The notes under the pieces were generated by a model that made no database searches, was not told the DNA's origin, and worked only from the letters and a program-made list of their open reading frames with translations. The position numbers were made by a program, and so were the translations under genes. A DNA stretch of 54,085 bases from an uncultured bacterium (lineage in GTDB: Bacteria; Patescibacteriota; Minisyncoccia; Phycocordibacterales; UBA1006), in NCBI GenBank assembly GCA_937868685.1, contig CALMMZ010000232.1:1-54085 (forward strand), read 5' to 3'. Shown here one piece after another: positions 2,176 to 28,009 of the stretch. Position 1 is the stretch's first letter; each line of letters begins with the position of its first letter.

Positions 2176-3588
2176 ATGGTCAAGTCATTACACGAAACAG
2201 CGAAGTCAATTTTGCTAAAAGAAGGTGAAGTTCCTTCTGTTAGCTCTTCTGACAATAATCCTGATCGCGATGCCAAGAGCTCAAACCCAAATATGGAGAC
2301 TTTGCATCCAAAGACAAAGTATAGCGAACCAGATCCAAAGCATAATGATGCCGAAGACCTAGGTGGTGCTACTCCAACATCTACCGCTAAGGAAAACCTT
2401 GGTGCAAAAGCAGCAAAAGTAGGAAAAGACAAGAGCAAATCTGGTATTCCTTCAGTTGGACCAGAATCACCAAAGAAGCTTTCTGAAAAAGACGAAAATG
2501 ATGACGATTCTGAAACCCTCGATGAAGAAATGGAAATTTCTGAAGAATTACAGGAATTCATCAATAATCTAGTCGCAGAAGGTTACTCAGACGAACAGAT
2601 CGAGGAAGCAATTGCAGAAAACTTTGAATATATCGAAGAATCTGAAGAAGACCCACTAGATGCAGTCATTGCTGAAATGATTGAAGACGGTCTTTCTGAG
2701 GAAGAAATCGTTAATATTCTAAGTGAAATGTCTAAAGAAGAATCAGACGAAACAATTGCCGAATCAGTAAGAACACCAGCAGCAGAAGTTAGAAGATTTG
2801 TTGTTGAATCAGCAAAAGTCACAAACCTTGATGAAGACCTAAAGGTTATGTTTGAAGGGGAAGAATTCTCTCCTGAATTCTTTGCAAAGGCAAAGACAAT
2901 CTTTGAAGCAGCAGTTAATTCTCGCGTAGAAGAAATCACAGATCGCATTCAAGAAAACTACGAAAATTACCTGAACGAAGAAGTAGCAAAGTTGGAAGAA
3001 GTTTATGCTTCTACACTTGAAGAAAGTGTACAGGAAATTGACGAAAAGGTTAACAACTACATGATCTATGTCACAGAACAGTGGCTAACAGAAAATGAAG
3101 TTGCAATTGAATCTGGTCTAAGAACAGAGCTTACCGAAGAATTCATTTCCGGTCTTCGCAACCTGCTTGCAGAACACTATATCGACATTCCTGAAGAAAA
3201 GGTTTCAGTAGTGGAAGAGCTTGGTAATGAAATTGAAAGCCTCAAGGAAAAGTTAAACGAAGAAATTAGCAAGAATGTTGAATTGTCAAACACACTCAAC
3301 GAAGCAGTTAGAGAAGCAGTTATTTCCGAAGCTGCAGATGGTTTGACAGATACTCAAGCAGCTAAGTTAAAGACTCTTTCTGAAAATGTTGAATTCACTG
3401 ATACTGAATCATTTGCTACAAAGGTTCAGACATTGAAGGAAAGTTATTTCCCTATTAAGACTGACAACAGCAAAGTCATTGACAAAGCAGAATCAGTTTC
3501 AAATGGCAAAGCAGAAGTGCTTACCGAAAACCTAAACGGACCAATGGCGACTTACGTTAAGGCTATTGGCGGAAAACTACCAAGATAA
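2176..3588 (+). CDS. gp22: prohead scaffolding protein (T4 gp22-like)
   Basis: 470 aa, highly acidic with Glu-rich predicted coiled coil. AAGGAG SD. Located between the gp21 and gp23 homologs. Confidence 0.8.
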   Translation: MVKSLHETAKSILLKEGEVPSVSSSDNNPDRDAKSSNPNMETLHPKTKYSEPDPKHNDAEDLGGATPTSTAKENLGAKAAKVGKDKSKSGIPSVGPESPKKLSEKDENDDDSETLDEEMEISEELQEFINNLVAEGYSDEQIEEAIAENFEYIEESEEDPLDAVIAEMIEDGLSEEEIVNILSEMSKEESDETIAESVRTPAAEVRRFVVESAKVTNLDEDLKVMFEGEEFSPEFFAKAKTIFEAAVNSRVEEITDRIQENYENYLNEEVAKLEEVYASTLEESVQEIDEKVNNYMIYVTEQWLTENEVAIESGLRTELTEEFISGLRNLLAEHYIDIPEEKVSVVEELGNEIESLKEKLNEEISKNVELSNTLNEAVREAVISEAADGLTDTQAAKLKTLSENVEFTDTESFATKVQTLKESYFPIKTDNSKVIDKAESVSNGKAEVLTENLNGPMATYVKAIGGKLPR

Positions 3589-3627: not shown

Positions 3628-3653
3628 TCTAATACCTATTGGGAGGTATCAGC

Positions 3654-4202
3654 ATGGATATATATAGATTTTATGTATATGCATATATTAGAGAAAAAGA
3701 TTTAACGCCATATTATATTGGTAAAGGAACAGGGAATAGAATACACAAAAAACATAGAGGTATATCTATTCCCAAAAATGAAAGTTTAAGAATAATTTTA
3801 GAATCAAATCTTTCAGAAATAGGAGCATTAGCTATTGAAAGAAGATTGATTCGCTGGTACGGTAGAAAGAATATTGATTTAAATGGTATACTTTTAAATC
3901 GTACAGAGGGTGGAGATGGAGTTTCTGGCTATAAACATACCTTAGAGACCAGAAAAAGAATTTCAAAAGTTCTTAAAGGAAGTAAAAAACCAAAAAGAAC
4001 TAAAGAACACTCTAAAAGATTAAGTTATAATGCAAAGTTTTGGAAAATAACATTTCCAAATGGAGAAATAAAAACTGTACTTAGTCTAAGAAAATTTTGT
4101 GCAGAAAACAAATTATGTGACAAAGCAATGAGAAATGTCGCTTATAATGTTCAAAATAGAAAACAACACAAAGGTTATAAGGTTAAACCTATAATCCAAT
4201 AA
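3654..4202 (+). CDS. free-standing GIY-YIG homing endonuclease
   Basis: [23 protein letters not shown] gives the GIY...YIG motif plus a downstream conserved Arg. Lys-rich C-terminal half. Much more AT-rich than its neighbours. The ATG at 3654 follows a GGAGG SD. Confidence 0.85.
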
Positions 4203-4223: not shown

Positions 4224-5564
4224 ATGTATTTAACAGAGGCGCTTGAAGACAAGTGGTCACCAGTCCTTGACCACGAAGGTCTTTCTAAGATTAAAGACCC
4301 ATATCGTCGCGCGGTTACTGCTATCATTCTTGAAAACCAGGAAGTTGCAATGGCAGAAGAACGCAGACAACTAAATGAAAGTGCACCTACAAACTCTGGT
4401 GGTGGTCTTGGTTCTGGAACCAACGTTGGTTCTTACGACCCAATTCTTATCTCTCTAGTTCGCCGTGCTCTTCCAAACCTTATCGCTTATGATGTTTGCG
4501 GTGTTCAGGCTATGACTGGTCCTACCGGTCTAATCTTCGCAATGCGTTCTAAGTACAAGACAATGGGTGGAACAGAAGCTCTATTTAACGAAGCAAATAC
4601 AGCATTTTCATCTACCAACGCTCTTGGTGCTAACGGTAACGTTTCTACCGGTTACGCAAACACAGACCCTGTTTATGACCTTTCAAGCGCAGGTGCTTAC
4701 GGTCTAGGACGTGGTATGACTACAGCTCAGGCTGAAGCTCTTGGTGACGTTTCAACAAACCAGTTTGCTGAAATGGCATTCGCAATTGACAAGGTAACTG
4801 TTACTGCTCGCAGCAAGGCGCTAAAGGCAGAATACACCATGGAACTTGCACAAGACCTTAAGGCAGTTCACGGCTTGGATGCTGAAACAGAATTGGCAAA
4901 CATTCTGTCAACAGAAATCCTTGCAGAAATCAACCGTGAAGTTATCCGTTCTATCTATATCTCTGCTACAGTTGGGGCACAGTATGGTGTAACAACCGCA
5001 GGAACATTCGACCTTGACACAGACTCTAACGGTCGTTGGTCAGTTGAAAAGTTCAAGGGTCTTATCTTCCAAATCGAACGTGAAGCGAATGCTATCGCAA
5101 AGGCAACACGTCGTGGTAAGGGTAACGTTCTGATCGTTTCTTCAGACGTTGCATCAGCTCTTGCTATGGCAAAGGTTCTTGACTACACACCTGCTCTAAG
5201 TGCAGACCTACAGGTTGACGACACCGGCAACACCTTTGCTGGTACAATCCACGGCAAAATCAAAGTTTACATCGATCCTTACTTCGGTGGTTCTGCAAAC
5301 GGTAACGAACTTGTAACAGTTGGTTACAAGGGTTCTTCACCATTCGACGCTGGTCTATTCTATTGCCCATACGTTCCTCTACAGATGGTTCGTGCAATTG
5401 GTCAAGACACATTCCAGCCAAAGATTGGTTTCAAGACCCGTTATGGCATGGTTGCTAACCCATTTGCTACAACCGCTGGTGATGGTTCTGTCGCAAGCAG
5501 AATTACAAATGCTAACAACGCAAATATATATTACCGGATTTTCCGCGTGACCAACTTGAGCTGA
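4224..5564 (+). CDS. gp23: major capsid protein (T4 gp23 family)
   Basis: 446 aa. Long colinear similarity to T4 gp23, e.g. VRRALPNLIAYDVCGVQAMTGPTG, ALKAEYTMELAQDLKAVHGLDAETELANILSTEILAEINREV and FKTRYGMVANPFA. Confidence 0.95.
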   Translation: MYLTEALEDKWSPVLDHEGLSKIKDPYRRAVTAIILENQEVAMAEERRQLNESAPTNSGGGLGSGTNVGSYDPILISLVRRALPNLIAYDVCGVQAMTGPTGLIFAMRSKYKTMGGTEALFNEANTAFSSTNALGANGNVSTGYANTDPVYDLSSAGAYGLGRGMTTAQAEALGDVSTNQFAEMAFAIDKVTVTARSKALKAEYTMELAQDLKAVHGLDAETELANILSTEILAEINREVIRSIYISATVGAQYGVTTAGTFDLDTDSNGRWSVEKFKGLIFQIEREANAIAKATRRGKGNVLIVSSDVASALAMAKVLDYTPALSADLQVDDTGNTFAGTIHGKIKVYIDPYFGGSANGNELVTVGYKGSSPFDAGLFYCPYVPLQMVRAIGQDTFQPKIGFKTRYGMVANPFATTAGDGSVASRITNANNANIYYRIFRVTNLS

Positions 5565-5708: not shown

Positions 5709-6239
5709 ATGACAGCAAGATCACCATTGACTGAAGTTCCAGTAAATACTAGTTTCCTCCAGTCAACTAAGTTTCAGTTTAGTTTTCCTACTCTGCCATT
5801 CTTGAGATATTTTGTTCAGGGTCTATCTATTCCTGGTGTATCAACTACAGCACCATCTGTTCCTTCTCCATTTGCTACAATGTATCGTCACGGTGATACA
5901 TTGGTATTTGATCCACTGACTGTTACAGTTGTTATCGATGAAGACCTGAGAGTTTGGGAAGAAACATACAAATGGTTAGTTGCATTAACCAAACCACAAA
6001 ATTTCCGTCAGTACATTAGAACAATCAATGGAAATGAAACACCATACCATGATGGTATCCTAACTATGCTGACCAATGCAAACATTCCCAATATTCGATA
6101 CAAGTTTACCTTCTGTCACCCACTTTCTATCAGTGCAATTCAGTTCACTCCTTCCGATTCTGCGGACGTTATACTGACAGCAGATATTGTTTTCAGATAT
6201 GATCAAATGGAAATAGAAAGATTACCAATTACTAGTTGA
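5709..6239 (+). CDS. gp3: tail completion / sheath stabilizer protein (T4 gp3-like)
   Basis: 176 aa, the same length as T4 gp3. Occupies the gp23-gp3-uvsY-uvsW position typical of marine T4-like phages. The call rests mainly on synteny and size. Confidence 0.5.
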   Translation: MTARSPLTEVPVNTSFLQSTKFQFSFPTLPFLRYFVQGLSIPGVSTTAPSVPSPFATMYRHGDTLVFDPLTVTVVIDEDLRVWEETYKWLVALTKPQNFRQYIRTINGNETPYHDGILTMLTNANIPNIRYKFTFCHPLSISAIQFTPSDSADVILTADIVFRYDQMEIERLPITS

Positions 6240-23778: not shown

Positions 23779-24717
23779 ATGAAAGATTTTCTGTGGACTG
23801 AAATATATCGTCCAAAGACTGTGGCGGAATGCATTCTTCCAGATAGGTTGAAGTCTGTATTCCAATCTTACGTGGATAAAAGAGAGATTCCAAATCTCCT
23901 ATTGACAGGTACAGCAGGTGTCGGTAAGACCACAATTGCAATTGCAATGTGTGAGGAAATCGGCATCAACTACATGTTTATCAAATCGTCCGAAGAAAGT
24001 GGTATTGACACAATCCGAAACAAGATTACCAACTATGCATCCACAGTATCATTGATGGGTGATAGAAAGGTAATCATTTTGGACGAGGCCGATGGTCTTT
24101 CACATGAAGCACAAAAGGCATTGAGAGGTGCAATCGAGGCATTCTCAAAGAATTGTACCTTCATTCTGACTTGCAATTACAAGGCAAAGATTATTGAAGC
24201 AATCCACTCACGTTCTGCGGTAATTGACTTCACACTTAGAAGTGAAGAAAAACCAAAGATGGCATCATTGTTCTATAAGAGACTTTGTGCAATTCTCAAA
24301 GAACAGAATGTGGAATATAAGCAAGATGTTCTTGTGAAAATTGTTGAGAAGTATTTTCCCGACTTCAGACGAATTGTAAATGAGTTGCAAAGGTATTCAT
24401 CGACTGGAAAGATCGATGAAACCACTCTTGCTCAAATCAATGCAATCAAGAATATCTCTGATCTTGTTGCTCTATTGAAAGACAAGAATTGGTCTGGTAT
24501 GCGTAAATGGGTAACACTAAACTCAGATACAGACCAGGCAACAATCAATCGAAAGATTTACAATGGCATGAGTGAATTTCTGAAACCAGAAAGCATCCCC
24601 CAATGCGTTGTGATTATTGGTAGGTATCAGTATCAGGCAGCATTTGTCAGTGATTTAGAAATAAACATGGTTGCAATGTTGACTGAAATCATGGTAGAGT
24701 GTGAATTTTTACCATAA
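23779..24717 (+). CDS. gp44: clamp loader large subunit gp44 (AAA+)
   Basis: YRPKTVAECILP vs T4 YRPSTIDECILP. Walker A GTAGVGKTT. Walker B ILDEADG. PDFRRIVNELQ vs T4 PDFRKTIGELD. Confidence 0.95.
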   Translation: MKDFLWTEIYRPKTVAECILPDRLKSVFQSYVDKREIPNLLLTGTAGVGKTTIAIAMCEEIGINYMFIKSSEESGIDTIRNKITNYASTVSLMGDRKVIILDEADGLSHEAQKALRGAIEAFSKNCTFILTCNYKAKIIEAIHSRSAVIDFTLRSEEKPKMASLFYKRLCAILKEQNVEYKQDVLVKIVEKYFPDFRRIVNELQRYSSTGKIDETTLAQINAIKNISDLVALLKDKNWSGMRKWVTLNSDTDQATINRKIYNGMSEFLKPESIPQCVVIIGRYQYQAAFVSDLEINMVAMLTEIMVECEFLP

Positions 24718-24725
24718 CTAAATAT

Positions 24726-24751
24726 ATTTGTCGCAGTTGTCTGCGACAAAT
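24726..24751 (+). promoter_or_regulatory. perfect 11-bp stem-loop abutting the SD of the HNH gene
   Basis: ATTTGTCGCAG-ttgt-CTGCGACAAAT. The GGAGG SD begins at 24752, and no U-tract follows. Confidence 0.7.
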
Positions 24752-24761
24752 GGAGGTTAGG

Positions 24762-25289
24762 ATGATAACAAACGAAACCAGACGGAAAATGTCTGAATCG
24801 GCAAAGAAAAGAGTTGCTAGGGGCATACTCCCAGATAATACTGGGAAATCACCTTGGAACAAAGGTAAAACTGCAGCTGATGATAAAAGAATTGGAGAAT
24901 ATGCAAATAAACAAAAAGGACAAAAAAGAACAGGTAATTATTTTTCTCCCATACGATGGAAAGGTAAAGATAATCCATGGTATGGAAAACAAAGAAAAGG
25001 ATCAGATAGTCCAAGATGGGTCGAGCATCGTCATTCTAGGGAGTATAAAGATTTTTATAACAGTGTAATTTGGGAAAGTGAAAAGACATACATAAAATAT
25101 AAGAATGAAATAAACCCATATGATCATCCAAGAACACTTTGTGGCGTTCCTGGAGGTTATCAATTAGACCATATAAAGTCAATTGATTTTGGATGGAAAA
25201 ATGGGTTAACAATTGAAGAATTGAGCTGTAAAGAAAATTTACAAATGTTATTATGGGAAGAAAATATAAAGAAATCTAACAAACAATGA
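24762..25289 (+). CDS. HNH homing endonuclease with N-terminal NUMOD3-like repeats
   Basis: PWNKGKT and NPWYGKQ NUMOD3-like motifs. C-terminal YQLDHIKSI...NLQMLLWEENIKKSN is an HNH core. AT-rich and Lys-rich. An alternative ATG at 24750 lies inside the hairpin. Confidence 0.8.
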   Translation: MITNETRRKMSESAKKRVARGILPDNTGKSPWNKGKTAADDKRIGEYANKQKGQKRTGNYFSPIRWKGKDNPWYGKQRKGSDSPRWVEHRHSREYKDFYNSVIWESEKTYIKYKNEINPYDHPRTLCGVPGGYQLDHIKSIDFGWKNGLTIEELSCKENLQMLLWEENIKKSNKQ

Positions 25290-25327
25290 ATTCCTATAAA
25301 TATCCAACAACCCAAAGGGGGAAGGAT

Positions 25328-25672
25328 ATGGCAAGAATTATCGTTAGACCACCAGGTTCAGGCAGACAATTTAGACATGGTGGTTTCCATTCATATCACA
25401 GAGGTAGTCCCATTCCAGGATTTGTGGGTGGAGTGTTTGGTGGTTTGATTGGTTCTGCAATTGCAAATTCAAATCGCGATGACTATGATGAAAGAGACAT
25501 TGAAGAAGAAAATGATGCCCGTGTAAAGAAGTTACTGGACTTCATTAATACAGCACCTCCAGGTGCCACAGTGAAATTAACACCAGATGAATTCAAACTC
25601 CTAAGCATGAAACAAATGGTATATTGGCAAGAAAAGCAACCATTTGTAGCAGGGAGATTGATCGAACAATAA
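25328..25672 (+). CDS. hypothetical glycine-zipper membrane protein
   Basis: The ATG at 25328 follows GGGGGAAGGA. GFVGGVFGGLIGSAIA is a GxxxG-type zipper segment, followed by an acidic soluble tail. Confidence 0.55.
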   Translation: MARIIVRPPGSGRQFRHGGFHSYHRGSPIPGFVGGVFGGLIGSAIANSNRDDYDERDIEEENDARVKKLLDFINTAPPGATVKLTPDEFKLLSMKQMVYWQEKQPFVAGRLIEQ

Positions 25673-25686
25673 CTAAGGATTTTATT

Positions 25687-26844
25687 ATGACAGTTTTTGA
25701 TCTTGACCTTAAGTTGGAAGAAAAAGAAGATAGGTATACTCTGCCACGAGATAGAATCCTACAAAGATTCTACTCTGATGGTGCATATACTACGCGGTAT
25801 GACAATATTACTCGCAATAGGACTATCACAGAAACAGAGAAGGTCTTTTACACAGACCTTCCTGAAAAAGCAGATATGTTCCACATAAACTATCTATCTT
25901 ATCTCAATTCCTCATACGCAATGCATAGAAAAATTGTATTGACACCAGACATTTTTTGGTATACAATTACATGTGAAATTGCGAAGCATGTGAAGAAATT
26001 TCCAGAGGAACACAGAAGTCTATTCACAAGACAACCAGGTAAGGTTAGTATTATTGTTCCTTGTTCCTCAGAGGAAGAACCTCTGAGAATGGATGCAATC
26101 TATGATAAACTGATGGAACTTGTGCCTACAAATACAAAGGCATTCCTTCCAAAGTTTTCTACAACCACTGAGAATTCCAGAATGGCAACACTTGCCGCGT
26201 TCCTGGAAACATGCTCACCTTACTACAATTATATGATGCTTCTGTGTGGTTTCATATCAATTAAGGTAACTGGTACTCTGGATGATTGGGACAAGTTATA
26301 TGAATGCCTGAATGAATTGATTGTAAACTTCAATTCTATTGGTAGCTCACTTGCTCATTTCTTGACTTTTTCAGTTGCACCTATTGTTCTGGGTATTATC
26401 GAGGCTCTGAAGAGGAAGGATTCTGAATTCTTTAAGGATATCTTCTATGATAAGAGGTGTGGTTCTGGGCATGATGCGGTTGATGGATGGTTCACAAAGA
26501 TGTTTATGGAAATTCCTAACCCAGCAAAGGTTGATAATTTTTCATCACACATCACAGTAGTTCCTTATACAACCTTACCATCTGGTAGAAATTGGAATAT
26601 GGTATTTGCTTTGGCACATTCAAACAAAGACAAGGATGGATTCCTTGTTCCTGAGTTTTCTCGTGCTCAAATGCTCAAGTTACCAAACCCAGTTTATACA
26701 ACGATTGAACCACAAGAACCCATTTTACCTAGGTATGAGGTTTATGACGTTAAGGCAAATACCCGCACATTGAAGGCAGAATATACTATAGAACAATCTC
26801 AAGACCTGGAAGCTGTGCATAGTATCGGAGAGGAAGATGAATAA
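25687..26844 (+). CDS. DUF4419-like protein with C-terminal major-capsid-like segment
   Basis: 385 aa. SSYAMHRKIVLTPDIFWYTITCEIAKHV and CGSGHDAVDGWFTKMF fit my recollection of DUF4419. The last 30 aa (TRTLKAEYTIEQSQDLEAVHSI) copy a gp23 segment. Confidence 0.65.
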   Translation: MTVFDLDLKLEEKEDRYTLPRDRILQRFYSDGAYTTRYDNITRNRTITETEKVFYTDLPEKADMFHINYLSYLNSSYAMHRKIVLTPDIFWYTITCEIAKHVKKFPEEHRSLFTRQPGKVSIIVPCSSEEEPLRMDAIYDKLMELVPTNTKAFLPKFSTTTENSRMATLAAFLETCSPYYNYMMLLCGFISIKVTGTLDDWDKLYECLNELIVNFNSIGSSLAHFLTFSVAPIVLGIIEALKRKDSEFFKDIFYDKRCGSGHDAVDGWFTKMFMEIPNPAKVDNFSSHITVVPYTTLPSGRNWNMVFALAHSNKDKDGFLVPEFSRAQMLKLPNPVYTTIEPQEPILPRYEVYDVKANTRTLKAEYTIEQSQDLEAVHSIGEEDE

Positions 26845-26989
26845 TTCAAACACATCAAATACCATAACTGAGGTGGATTTTGACTTTTTCTTAACTTTCC
26901 CTCTAGATATGCCGGATTTAAAAATTGATGAAGGCCCAGCATTTATGAATGTGATTTTCAAATATGAATATTGGGGAGATAAAGACTGA
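26837..26989 (+). CDS. hypothetical 50-aa protein
   Basis: ORF below the track cutoff. Its ATG overlaps the upstream stop (ATGAATAA), and its TGA overlaps the gp62 ATG (TGATG), which suggests translational coupling on both sides. Confidence 0.4.
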   Translation: MNNSNTSNTITEVDFDFFLTFPLDMPDLKIDEGPAFMNVIFKYEYWGDKD

Positions 26990-27420
26990 TGGCGGACCTA
27001 TTTAAGGAAATTATCCCTGCTATACTGCAAACCAAGCAAAATGTCCTGGAAGAGGAAAAAGACTATGTGCCATTCATTGTAAATAGAGCATTATCCTATC
27101 ACTATGATTGTATTATGTTTGCCAATGAAATGAACAGGTTGCCTAATCTGGACCGGAAGCTTCAGTTTGATTTTTATCTAAATACCATTAGGTCATATAA
27201 GAGACCTTTTCAAAAATGGCAAAAGCGCGAAACTGTTGAAGATTTGGAAATTATCAAAGAATATTTTAACTATTCTAACGAAAAGGCCAAGCAAGCTATG
27301 ACAGTCCTGACTTCTGCCCAAATTGATGAAATAAGAACAAAAATATATAAAGGTGGAAGTGAAAATGGTCCAAAACATAGACGAACTATTCAAGGAGCTA
27401 ATAGAGGTAAAGCTTCATAA
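26989..27420 (+). CDS. gp62: clamp loader small subunit gp62
   Basis: KDYVPFIVNRALSYHYDCIMFANEMN vs T4 gp62 [26 protein letters not shown]. Lies immediately upstream of regA, as in T4. Confidence 0.8.
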   Translation: MADLFKEIIPAILQTKQNVLEEEKDYVPFIVNRALSYHYDCIMFANEMNRLPNLDRKLQFDFYLNTIRSYKRPFQKWQKRETVEDLEIIKEYFNYSNEKAKQAMTVLTSAQIDEIRTKIYKGGSENGPKHRRTIQGANRGKAS

Positions 27421-27787
27421 CGAAGATGACTTCCTAAAGGTTAGGGAAACCTTAACACGTATCGGGGTCGCACCAAAAAAGGACAAAATCCTCTATCAAT
27501 CTTGCCATATTCTACACAAACAGGGTAGATATGCAATTGTTCATTTCAAACAAATGTTCCTATTAGATGGTAAGAATTCTGACTTTTCAGAAGACGATAG
27601 AGCTAGGTTAAATACGATTGCAAACCTTCTTGAGGAATGGGGTCTGGTGGAAATAGTTAACCCAGCCAAAACTGTGAGTCCAGTCGCACCTTTGAATCAA
27701 ATAAAAATCATCACTCATAAAGAAAAACCAGAGTGGCAATTAGTGGCAAAATATACATTTGGAAAGAATATACAGCGAAAGGAATAA
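27365..27787 (+). CDS. regA: translational repressor RegA
   Basis: EDDFLKVRETLTRIGVAPKKDKILYQSCHILHKQGRYAIVHFKQMF vs T4 PEDFLKVKETLTRMGIANNKDKVLYQSCHILQKKGLYYIVHFKEML. Confidence 0.95.
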   Translation: MVQNIDELFKELIEVKLHNEDDFLKVRETLTRIGVAPKKDKILYQSCHILHKQGRYAIVHFKQMFLLDGKNSDFSEDDRARLNTIANLLEEWGLVEIVNPAKTVSPVAPLNQIKIITHKEKPEWQLVAKYTFGKNIQRKE

Positions 27788-27790
27788 ATT

Positions 27791-28009
27791 ATGAGTGTGA
27801 AACCGGATTTTGAATCTTATACAGCACATGGGGTTGTCGTGGGACCTAATGAACTAGTAGTTGAACAGTCGGTGAGATTGGAAATGATTAAACTACTACT
27901 ACCACAAAATCCAAATGCACCACTAATATCGGTGTTAAAAATAGCAAATCTTTATACTGACTTTATTTTGAGAGGTGATATACCGAATGACAAAACTAAA
28001 ATTTTATAA
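27791..28009 (+). CDS. hypothetical protein
   Basis: 72-aa ORF tightly packed between regA and dut. Confidence 0.5.
   Translation: MSVKPDFESYTAHGVVVGPNELVVEQSVRLEMIKLLLPQNPNAPLISVLKIANLYTDFILRGDIPNDKTKIL

Follow-up and report, generated by a model that had tools for sequence, protein, structure and literature searches.

Among described systems, those that come closest to the one reported here are the cargo-loading peptides of encapsulins, the capsid-targeting sequence (CTS) of T4, the SaPI1 protein CpmB and paralogues of capsid proteins. The CTS is an N-terminal stretch of roughly 10 residues on IPI-III and Alt; it binds the scaffolding core, and the prohead protease cleaves it off at L/I-x-E. 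Here we describe a C-terminal tail that resembles part of gp23, the major capsid protein, and sits on a DUF4419 protein encoded in a 54,085-nt stretch of DNA (contig CALMMZ010000232.1, analysed at its full length and called the window below), the source of which is an uncultured T4-like myovirus and the G+C content of which is 37.7%. The comparisons below leave us confident that the tail is a real, conserved module derived from gp23, and its probable role is that of a tag for capsid docking or capsid mimicry, of an undescribed kind. CpmB mimics the C-terminal, capsid-binding helix of the helper phage scaffold (PMC5644958); in literature searches aimed at such a case, we found no description of a tag that copies the shell protein's own lattice contacts.

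The lattice contacts of T4 have been laid out by Fang et al. (2022, PMC9546572). Capsomers associate near the quasi-threefold axes, where there is hydrophobic contact between P loops, and an electrostatic contact is made between a short, negatively charged helix of the P domain and a positively charged beta-strand region of the P domain. According to the same work, the head-length mutations A268V, A275T, D285V and D287V/N are close to the acidic helix, T457A, R460C and G461S are at the P loop, and the P-domain sheet contains A455V, a gp31-bypass mutation.

A gp23-like tail on a DUF4419 protein

The DUF4419 gene (25687..26844, +; stop codon 26842-26844) encodes 385 residues, the last 31 of which form the tail (residues 355-385, VKANTRTLKAEYTIEQSQDLEAVHSIGEEDE; 26749-26841, +), in frame with the DUF4419 core. 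Its counterpart is the segment of residues 193-223 in the gp23 of the window (VTARSKALKAEYTMELAQDLKAVHGLDAETE; 4800..4892, +), which is nearly invariant in 81 gp23 sequences. The gp23 gene itself (4224..5564, +) encodes 446 residues and matches PF07068 at 465.8 bits; its product shares 62-65% identity with capsid proteins from myophages of Pelagibacter, Methylophilales and Synechococcus, with 65% identity to that of Pelagibacter phage Mosig, and no long DNA identity to the window was found among phage records.

An earlier note on this DNA had proposed that the open reading frame (ORF) 25687..26844 ends in a copy of a conserved capsid segment, and this was confirmed by BLASTP, shuffling, Pfam, PHROG and a hidden Markov model (HMM) of our own. 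In BLASTP the tail aligns to gp23 193-223 without gaps, with 17 of 31 residues identical and 23 of 31 similar (E 2e-7); 14 identities fall in the 24-residue stretch gp23 195-218 (nt 4806-4877). The ungapped BLOSUM62 score of the pair is 86, as compared to a mean of 24.3 (standard deviation 4.1, maximum 41) for 300 shuffled tails, a distance of about 15 standard deviations, and the similarity is thus significant against composition-matched sequences. The Pfam family Gp23 (PF07068) matches residues 354-381 at profile positions 142-169 of 376 (28 positions), scoring 23.8 bits on the whole protein and 28.2 bits on the tail alone with a gathering cut-off of 24.4, and PHROG 138, "major head protein", matches residues 354-384. 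The HMM built from the 81 gp23 sequences found the tail at HMM positions 189-221 (E 1.6e-6) in a search of the 532 six-frame ORFs of the window, with no further match outside gp23 among them; nor was the module seen on any other window ORF. The tail represents gp23 193-223 alone, so that the HK97 fold is incomplete, and the rest of the protein is DUF4419. Judging from its sequence, the product of ORF 25687..26844 is not a capsid protein.

The tail and the gp23 gene of the window share 55 of 93 nt (59%), the only long identical runs being AAGGCAGAATA (26773) and CAAGACCT (26800), and identity by codon position is 22/31, 23/31 and 10/31. Since nt identity to 80 other gp23 genes averages 62% and is 68% at best, no recent donor is apparent among them. 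A recent duplication of, or gene conversion from, the phage's own gp23 was rejected on the overall nt identity, the third-codon count and the higher values reached by other gp23 genes. The resemblance at the DNA and profile levels therefore points to a similarity that is old and has been kept at the protein level. The earlier note had argued in the same direction from the shortness of the identical runs, and the drop from 22-23 of 31 at the first two codon positions to 10 of 31 at the third upholds it. Also upheld was its view that the stretch of gp23 resembled by the tail ranks among the most conserved and comes immediately ahead of the spine helix, and the T4 sequence that it quoted, SRQLKAAYSIELAQDLRAVHG, is correct and corresponds to T4 gp23 263-283.

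Tails in the DUF4419 family

All DUF4419 relatives considered here are metagenomic. A word-indexed search returned 44 homologues, most of which are 340-346 residues long and end right after the conserved core, and an exhaustive profile search of a representative library returned 5155 relatives at E <= 1e-3. C-terminal extensions of at least 15 residues past the core were present in 45 of 189 family members, and for 12 of these 45 tails the best gp23-HMM match at an independent E-value below 0.05 was inside HMM positions 165-240, as against 0.57 such tails on average, and never more than 2, in 30 shuffle sets. When 14 tails, excluding that of the window, were aligned to the gp23 alignment with hhalign, the match fell on gp23 183-214 (E 2.4e-5). 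An HMM of the same 14 tails, searched against the 532 window ORFs, gave gp23 as its best match (E 6.9e-8), followed by the window tail (E 1.6e-5). The expectation that homologues would conserve the tail is thus only partly satisfied: at least 12 distant members match the same gp23 segment, whereas most members (~340-346 aa) are tailless and the nearest syntenic allele, P0002, resembles gp23 in the first half only.

Many of the tails follow the pattern h-x-I-E-x-x-x-V-x-A-K-x-R-K-L-K-A-x-W-T-V-E-Q-x-Q-D, the gp23 counterpart of which is F-S-I-E-K-V-T-V-T-A-K-S-R-A-L-K-A-E-Y-T-M-E-L-A-Q-D-L, and xAKxRKLKAxW is kept in tails of cores that are only ~30% identical. A second motif, x-(F/Y)-x-A-P-(Y/F)-(I/V)-P, is found in seven tails (P0002, P0038, P0052, P0100, P0148, P0161 and P0053); in its xAPYIP form it aligns to gp23 residues 377-385 (GLFYCPYVP; 5352..5378, +) and follows the first motif, as it does in gp23 (hhalign P 0.0022). 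The window's own tail is without it. The tails of the window, P0124 and P0126 extend to the ...HG(L) end of the short helix, and that of P0052 goes further and includes the beginning of the spine helix (gp23 HMM 180-233, E 1.2e-5). Most tails have W at the position of gp23's invariant Y; the window tail, with Y, resembles gp23 more closely than any other tail. The shared W in place of Y argues for one old acquisition that has been retained, rather than repeated recent captures. Overall, the tail module is old and recurrent, and optional in the family. A search for the same tail on other protein families, with the tail alignment and the P0052 tail against 5.8 billion sequences, gave nothing at E <= 10, although queries this short make the result no evidence of absence.

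Position of the copied elements in the T4 lattice

T4 numbering was taken from an alignment of the window gp23 with T4 gp23 as given in PDB entries 6uzc and 7vs5, in which G292, V306/V307, K420 and A455 fall where the literature has them. On this numbering the tail corresponds to T4 gp23 259-289 and the second motif to T4 447-455, which includes A455 and directly precedes the P-loop head-length cluster T457/R460/G461. The first part of the tail, residues 355-368 (VKANTRTLKAEYTI; 26749..26790, +), copies the gp23 beta-strand with the basic patch (window gp23 193-206, T4 259-272) and is the portion common to other tails, with the consensus xVxAKxRKLKAxWTVE. The second part, residues 369-385 (EQSQDLEAVHSIGEEDE; 26791..26844, +, with the stop), copies the region of the short acidic P-domain helix (window gp23 207-223, T4 273-289), and the positions of A275T, D285V and D287V/N fall within it. 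The basic patch of the window tail reads TRTLKAEY and its acidic helix EQSQDLEAVH...EEDE; the helix part has 7 acidic and 0 basic residues, as compared to 6 acidic and 1 basic in the matching gp23 stretch. We infer that the basic patch of the tails, K/R-x-R-K-L-K, is the "positively charged strand region" of Fang et al. By this alignment, the two tail motifs lie at or beside two of the head-length mutation clusters at the quasi-threefold capsomer junctions. Taken with the contacts described by Fang et al., these positions indicate that the tail family copies elements of the capsomer-to-capsomer junction.

The tail is joined to the core by a Pro/Glu-rich linker, residues 340-354 (TTIEPQEPILPRYEVYD; 26704..26748, +), which varies in length and sequence among homologues. 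In the AlphaFold2 (AF2) model of the window protein the predicted local distance difference test score (pLDDT) is 72.7 overall and 70-90 in the core, drops to 58 over residues 341-350, and is below 50 from residue 347 on, except for residues 355-358; such low values suggest a flexible linker. A compact mini P-domain had been considered for the 106-aa tail of P0052, but the AF2 model, a single helix of low confidence, does not support it.

A fast-changing cassette

The gene lies in a stretch of unusually rapid change. A related contig, L001 (JGI 3300009868), matches the window at 97-100% identity to the left and right of this cassette, and identity drops to ~60-65% over ~25680-26950, from the DUF4419 start codon to the end of a 50-aa ORF, the tail being the most divergent part at 44-48%. 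The L001 allele, P0002, is 61% identical to the window protein and has a tail of similar length, which keeps ALKANWKIVQA and then has an xAPFIP motif in place of the helix. A frameshift linking the two tails was ruled out, as no alternative L001 frame encodes the helix part. A third allele, P0003, is found in a more distant backbone and has a short, different tail. The window protein itself occurs in identical form on 21 contigs, the longest of 173 kb, and its 90% cluster has 36 members; among the 13 variant sequences of that cluster there are 0 substitutions in residues 355-383 as against 1.2 expected, a comparison that is underpowered. The cassette pattern fits both allele exchange under diversifying pressure and ordinary accessory-gene turnover.

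The 99-100% identity to L001 has a second local break at 27736-27938, around the end of regA and a 72-aa ORF (27791-28009) that appears to be missing from L001.

Genomic setting and late-promoter motif

The DUF4419 gene is located inside the replication module. Upstream, in order, are gp45 (sliding clamp), an ORF without a family match, DsbA, gp44 (clamp-loader large subunit, 23779-24717), an endonuclease-like gene and a 114-aa ORF; downstream are the 50-aa ORF, gp62 (clamp-loader small subunit, 26989-27420), RegA and dUTPase. The 114-aa ORF (25328..25672, +) encodes a membrane-like glycine-zipper segment, GFVGGVFGGLIGSAIA, with a weak Pfam glycine-zipper match, and an acidic stretch; it has a Shine-Dalgarno sequence, GGGGGAAGGA, before its ATG at 25328. 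It is the first gene after the late-promoter motif described below and directly precedes the DUF4419 gene, which it mostly accompanies; L001, L093 and L096 have this ORF, and L094 lacks it. The 50-aa ORF (26837..26989, +; MNNSNTSNTITEVDFDFFLTFPLDMPDLKIDEG...) overlaps the last codons of the tail by 8 nt and belongs to the same divergent cassette: it has 65% nt identity to L001, is deleted in L093 and L094 and absent in L096, and has no family match in Pfam or PHROG. PADLOC found no defence or anti-defence family match for the DUF4419 protein or its two small neighbours. When 50,697 phage records were searched with tblastn, the DUF4419 gene gave 4 matches, all to uncultured phages and none to a cultured one.

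The homing-endonuclease-like gene (24750..25289, +) has a NUMOD3 motif and, by eye only, an HNH-like C-terminus, and its insertion falls precisely in the gap that separates the stop codon of gp44 from the late-promoter motif. L093, L094 and L096 lack it, and L001 has it with 100% identity; at its insertion point there is a short repeat, GTGAATT...TGAATTCC. A second homing-endonuclease-like gene (3639-4202), with NUMOD3 by Pfam and a GIY-YIG-type motif, YIGKG, by eye, lies between the scaffold gene (gp22, 2176-3588) and gp23, and parts gp23 from an AATAAAT motif at ~3590.

A perfect T4-type late-promoter core, TATAAATA (25295..25302, +), is found 26 nt upstream of the ATG at 25328. ATAAATA stands 30-34 nt 5' of three start codons: at 2176 (scaffold gene), at 5709 (tail-tube-like ORF) and at 25328 (114-aa ORF). 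In L093 and L096, which are without the endonuclease gene, the entire motif, GAATTCCTATAAATATCC...GGGGGAAGGATATG, is kept with its ribosome-binding site directly after gp44, and one of the relatives that keep it has a backbone nt identity of only 80-90%. No such motif was found upstream of distant family members, the genomes of which differ in composition. As motif evidence, the perfection of TATAAATA, its conservation and its matching spacing make late transcription likely, and expression of the DUF4419 gene late, alongside the head proteins, is thus plausible. The word "non-structural" in the earlier note was an assumption only: although surrounded by genes of replication, the gene follows a conserved T4-type late-promoter motif.

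The ORF that follows gp23 (5709-6239) has a PHROG "tail tube" match (E 1.8e-25). Upstream of this ORF come a terminator-like hairpin and then CATAAATA, the latter 34 nt before the start codon, a clear example of late-promoter spacing.

The DUF4419 core

The core matches DUF4419 (PF14388) over residues 75-273 (25909..26505, +) with 120.4 bits against a cut-off of 25 (E 1.4e-34), and conservation runs on to about residue 340. H66, N68, Y69, H80 and C258-G-S-G261 are invariant. The domain is mentioned in only two papers, one of which, PMC5381508, gives it no function. The core of P0052 was modelled by AF2 from an 84-sequence alignment with pLDDT ~90, mostly 80-95. Foldseek searches of the PDB with two AF2 models gave no match below E 0.13. 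In BFVD, the structural relatives of the P0052 model come from Pithovirus, Fadolivirus, Tupanvirus, Marseillevirus, Leptopilina boulardi filamentous virus and entomopoxviruses, all uncharacterised; two of the entomopoxvirus relatives are labelled "inhibitor of apoptosis", a label that is unverified. The most conserved core motif, IFxxKRCGSGxQ (residues 252-265, window 26440-26480), weakly resembles, as IFTQKRCGSGxQ, the haem-binding CxxCH region (IFQQKGCGSCHQ) of the Aquifex cytochrome c555/c552 (E 0.0087), the only match in a PDB sequence search with the family profile. Conservation in the family does not extend to the second Cys or the His of that region, and the match is probably due to chance.

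Discussion

The reading that we favour, at a probability of roughly 0.4, is that the tail docks the DUF4419 protein on gp23 or the prohead during head assembly. The DUF4419 protein would be made with the glycine-zipper protein from the T4-type late promoter, at the time when gp23 is synthesized. Within the lattice of T4, one capsomer's acidic helix would pair with the basic P-domain strand region of the next, and therefore a free copy of these contact elements could fill capsomer edges that are unsatisfied, such as those of free hexamers, growing prohead rims and special vertices. Occupying such an edge would tether the DUF4419 protein to gp23, leading to its packaging, its display, or a modulation of shell assembly. 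The architecture is tag-like, the module being C-terminal, placed behind a variable linker, and optional in the family. In a broader form, it could be, with somewhat less than even odds in our view, that a widespread accessory-protein family of large phages carries a miniature, self-derived copy of the capsomer interface in a swappable cassette, consisting of the basic strand, the acidic helix and, for certain members, also the strand that runs up to the P loop, and serving as a homotypic docking tag or as a decoy.

Several observations weigh against docking. Most family members are tailless, and the tail is no closer to its own gp23 than to other gp23 proteins, giving no sign of co-variation. 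The copied elements are partly intramolecular in gp23, where they belong to the P-domain sheet, and a free copy need not bind the lattice; AF2 gives neither the window protein nor the 106-aa P0052 tail a confident tail structure, nor any compact P-domain-like fold. The number of TATAAATA occurrences in the window equals that expected by chance, and no gp23 gene was found on the contigs of tailed relatives, which are short. Moreover, three independent samples (L093, L094 and L095) have an amber variant, GAG to TAG at codon 351 (window 26737-26739), which indicates that the tail is dispensable in some settings. The 35 downstream tail codons of this variant are in frame and almost unchanged, its 50-aa ORF is deleted, and no suppressor tRNA was found for it, the window being without tRNA genes; the variant may be a recent knock-out or a read-through site.

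The tail could instead be a molecular decoy or bait that imitates a gp23 surface read by a host factor, be it the chaperonin system or a protein of immunity or abortive infection that senses capsids, and either soaks up that factor or brings the core to it. Capsid proteins reportedly act as immune triggers, as in the case of CapRel, and late co-expression with gp23 would suit such a role. The cassette has the look of an arms race, with ~60-65% identity over 25680-26950 inside flanks of 99-100% and only 44-48% in the tail, and there are three alleles with different tails in related backbones besides the tail-removing amber variant; quick divergence is, however, also usual in accessory genes. 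The copied stretches adjoin or include the T4 gp23 sites of the gp31-bypass mutations G292S and A455V, which bear on chaperonin dependence, but the best-known T4 capsid trigger, the Gol peptide, presumably derives from a different region of gp23 (~residues 93-122), which counts against a decoy. With no host or sensor known, no defence or anti-defence family match by PADLOC for the protein or its neighbours, and the prospect that a look-alike of a trigger could equally set off the system, we regard a decoy as unlikely. The same surfaces could serve assembly interference, in which the tail caps capsomer edges and thereby limits aberrant gp23 polymerisation, tunes head size or poisons the heads of co-infecting relatives, with no delivery of the protein involved. 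Of the three clusters of T4 head-length mutations at the quasi-threefold junctions, two do coincide with the copied elements, and mimicry of structural proteins is reported to redirect capsid assembly in the case of SaPI CpmB (PMC5644958) and Ccm (PMC8569155). Yet the gp23 segment is nearly invariant in the clade, so that a poison would hit the phage's own heads, no satellite or competitor context is evident, and the large conserved DUF4419 core would be left unexplained; we find interference distinctly improbable.

A role internal to the DUF4419 protein, in oligomerisation or autoinhibition, would make the gp23 likeness a matter of a similar strand-helix element. Such an intramolecular or homo-oligomeric role is compatible with the lack of confidence with which AF2 places the tail, and the tail varies jointly with the core in the swapped cassette. 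Convergence, however, would not yield matches to two separate gp23 segments in gp23 order, and the core is stable without a tail in most of the family, which makes this explanation very doubtful. We likewise see only a slight chance that the tail is a functionless, neutral relic, a gp23 fragment caught by illegitimate or endonuclease-associated recombination at a plastic locus. The locus is plastic indeed: the endonuclease gene, the 114-aa, 91-aa and 50-aa ORFs and the tail are each present or absent among relatives, homing-endonuclease genes adjoin both gp23 (3639-4202) and the DUF4419 locus (24750-25289), and most homologues have no tail, while in some an amber codon abolishes it. A relic would be expected to decay, yet the motif persists across cores ~30% identical, with identity to gp23 concentrated at codon positions 1 and 2. 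The derived W common to most tails speaks for one old acquisition that was kept, and the absence of substitutions in residues 355-383 (1.2 expected in 13 variants), a weak test, goes the same way.

If docking is correct, the tail would represent a new targeting principle, in which the lattice contacts of the shell itself are copied, as opposed to a peptide that binds a scaffold or a pocket, and it could be used for loading or decorating T4-type capsids. Should the tail be a decoy, it would point to a host sensor of a highly conserved capsid segment, and to a lattice shielded from host sensors. The natural variation of the tails, overlapping as they do two head-length clusters, provides ready probes of the quasi-threefold contacts that set head geometry. 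The tail is also a handle on DUF4419, a domain for which phages, giant viruses, poxviruses and cells together account for >5000 representative sequences.

Comparison with known systems

The cargo-loading peptides of encapsulins resemble the window tail in being short C-terminal modules placed behind a cargo protein on a flexible linker (predicted for the window protein), in being optional and modular, and in having an HK97-fold partner, as is proposed here. Unlike them, the window tail has an unrelated sequence with no GSL-type motif and copies the shell protein itself; the shell concerned is a virus capsid, and binding to it is only proposed. Like the T4 CTS, the tail would direct a non-shell protein into or onto a T4-type prohead in late assembly, from a gene that is probably late. 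In contrast to the CTS, the module is C-terminal, ~31 residues long and capsid-protein-like. The linker is without an L/I-x-E site, and the only I-x-E site, IGE at residues 380-382, is 3 residues from the end. Capsid-sensing immunity of the Lit/Gol and CapRel kind shares with the tail the use of short conserved capsid stretches as recognition elements, such that a free copy could conjecturally be a decoy; it differs in that no sensor is known for the gp23 segment of the tail, and we know of no phage-encoded capsid-fragment decoy.

The vertex protein gp24 of T4 and the Ccm of SaPIbov5 (PMC8569155) are, like the tail, derived from a major capsid protein, and these occupy or alter the capsid lattice, but they are full-length HK97-fold proteins, whereas the window tail represents 31 of 446 gp23 residues. 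SaPI1 CpmB (PMC5644958) is also a short C-terminal copy of an interaction element of a structural protein and engages the capsid protein, which for the window tail is only proposed; it copies the scaffold, however, and is borne by a satellite and resizes the capsid of its helper, whereas the window gene is in the phage itself and its tail is fused to a large unrelated domain. From these comparisons, the window module is conceptually like encapsulin tags, the CTS and CpmB, yet a member of none of them.

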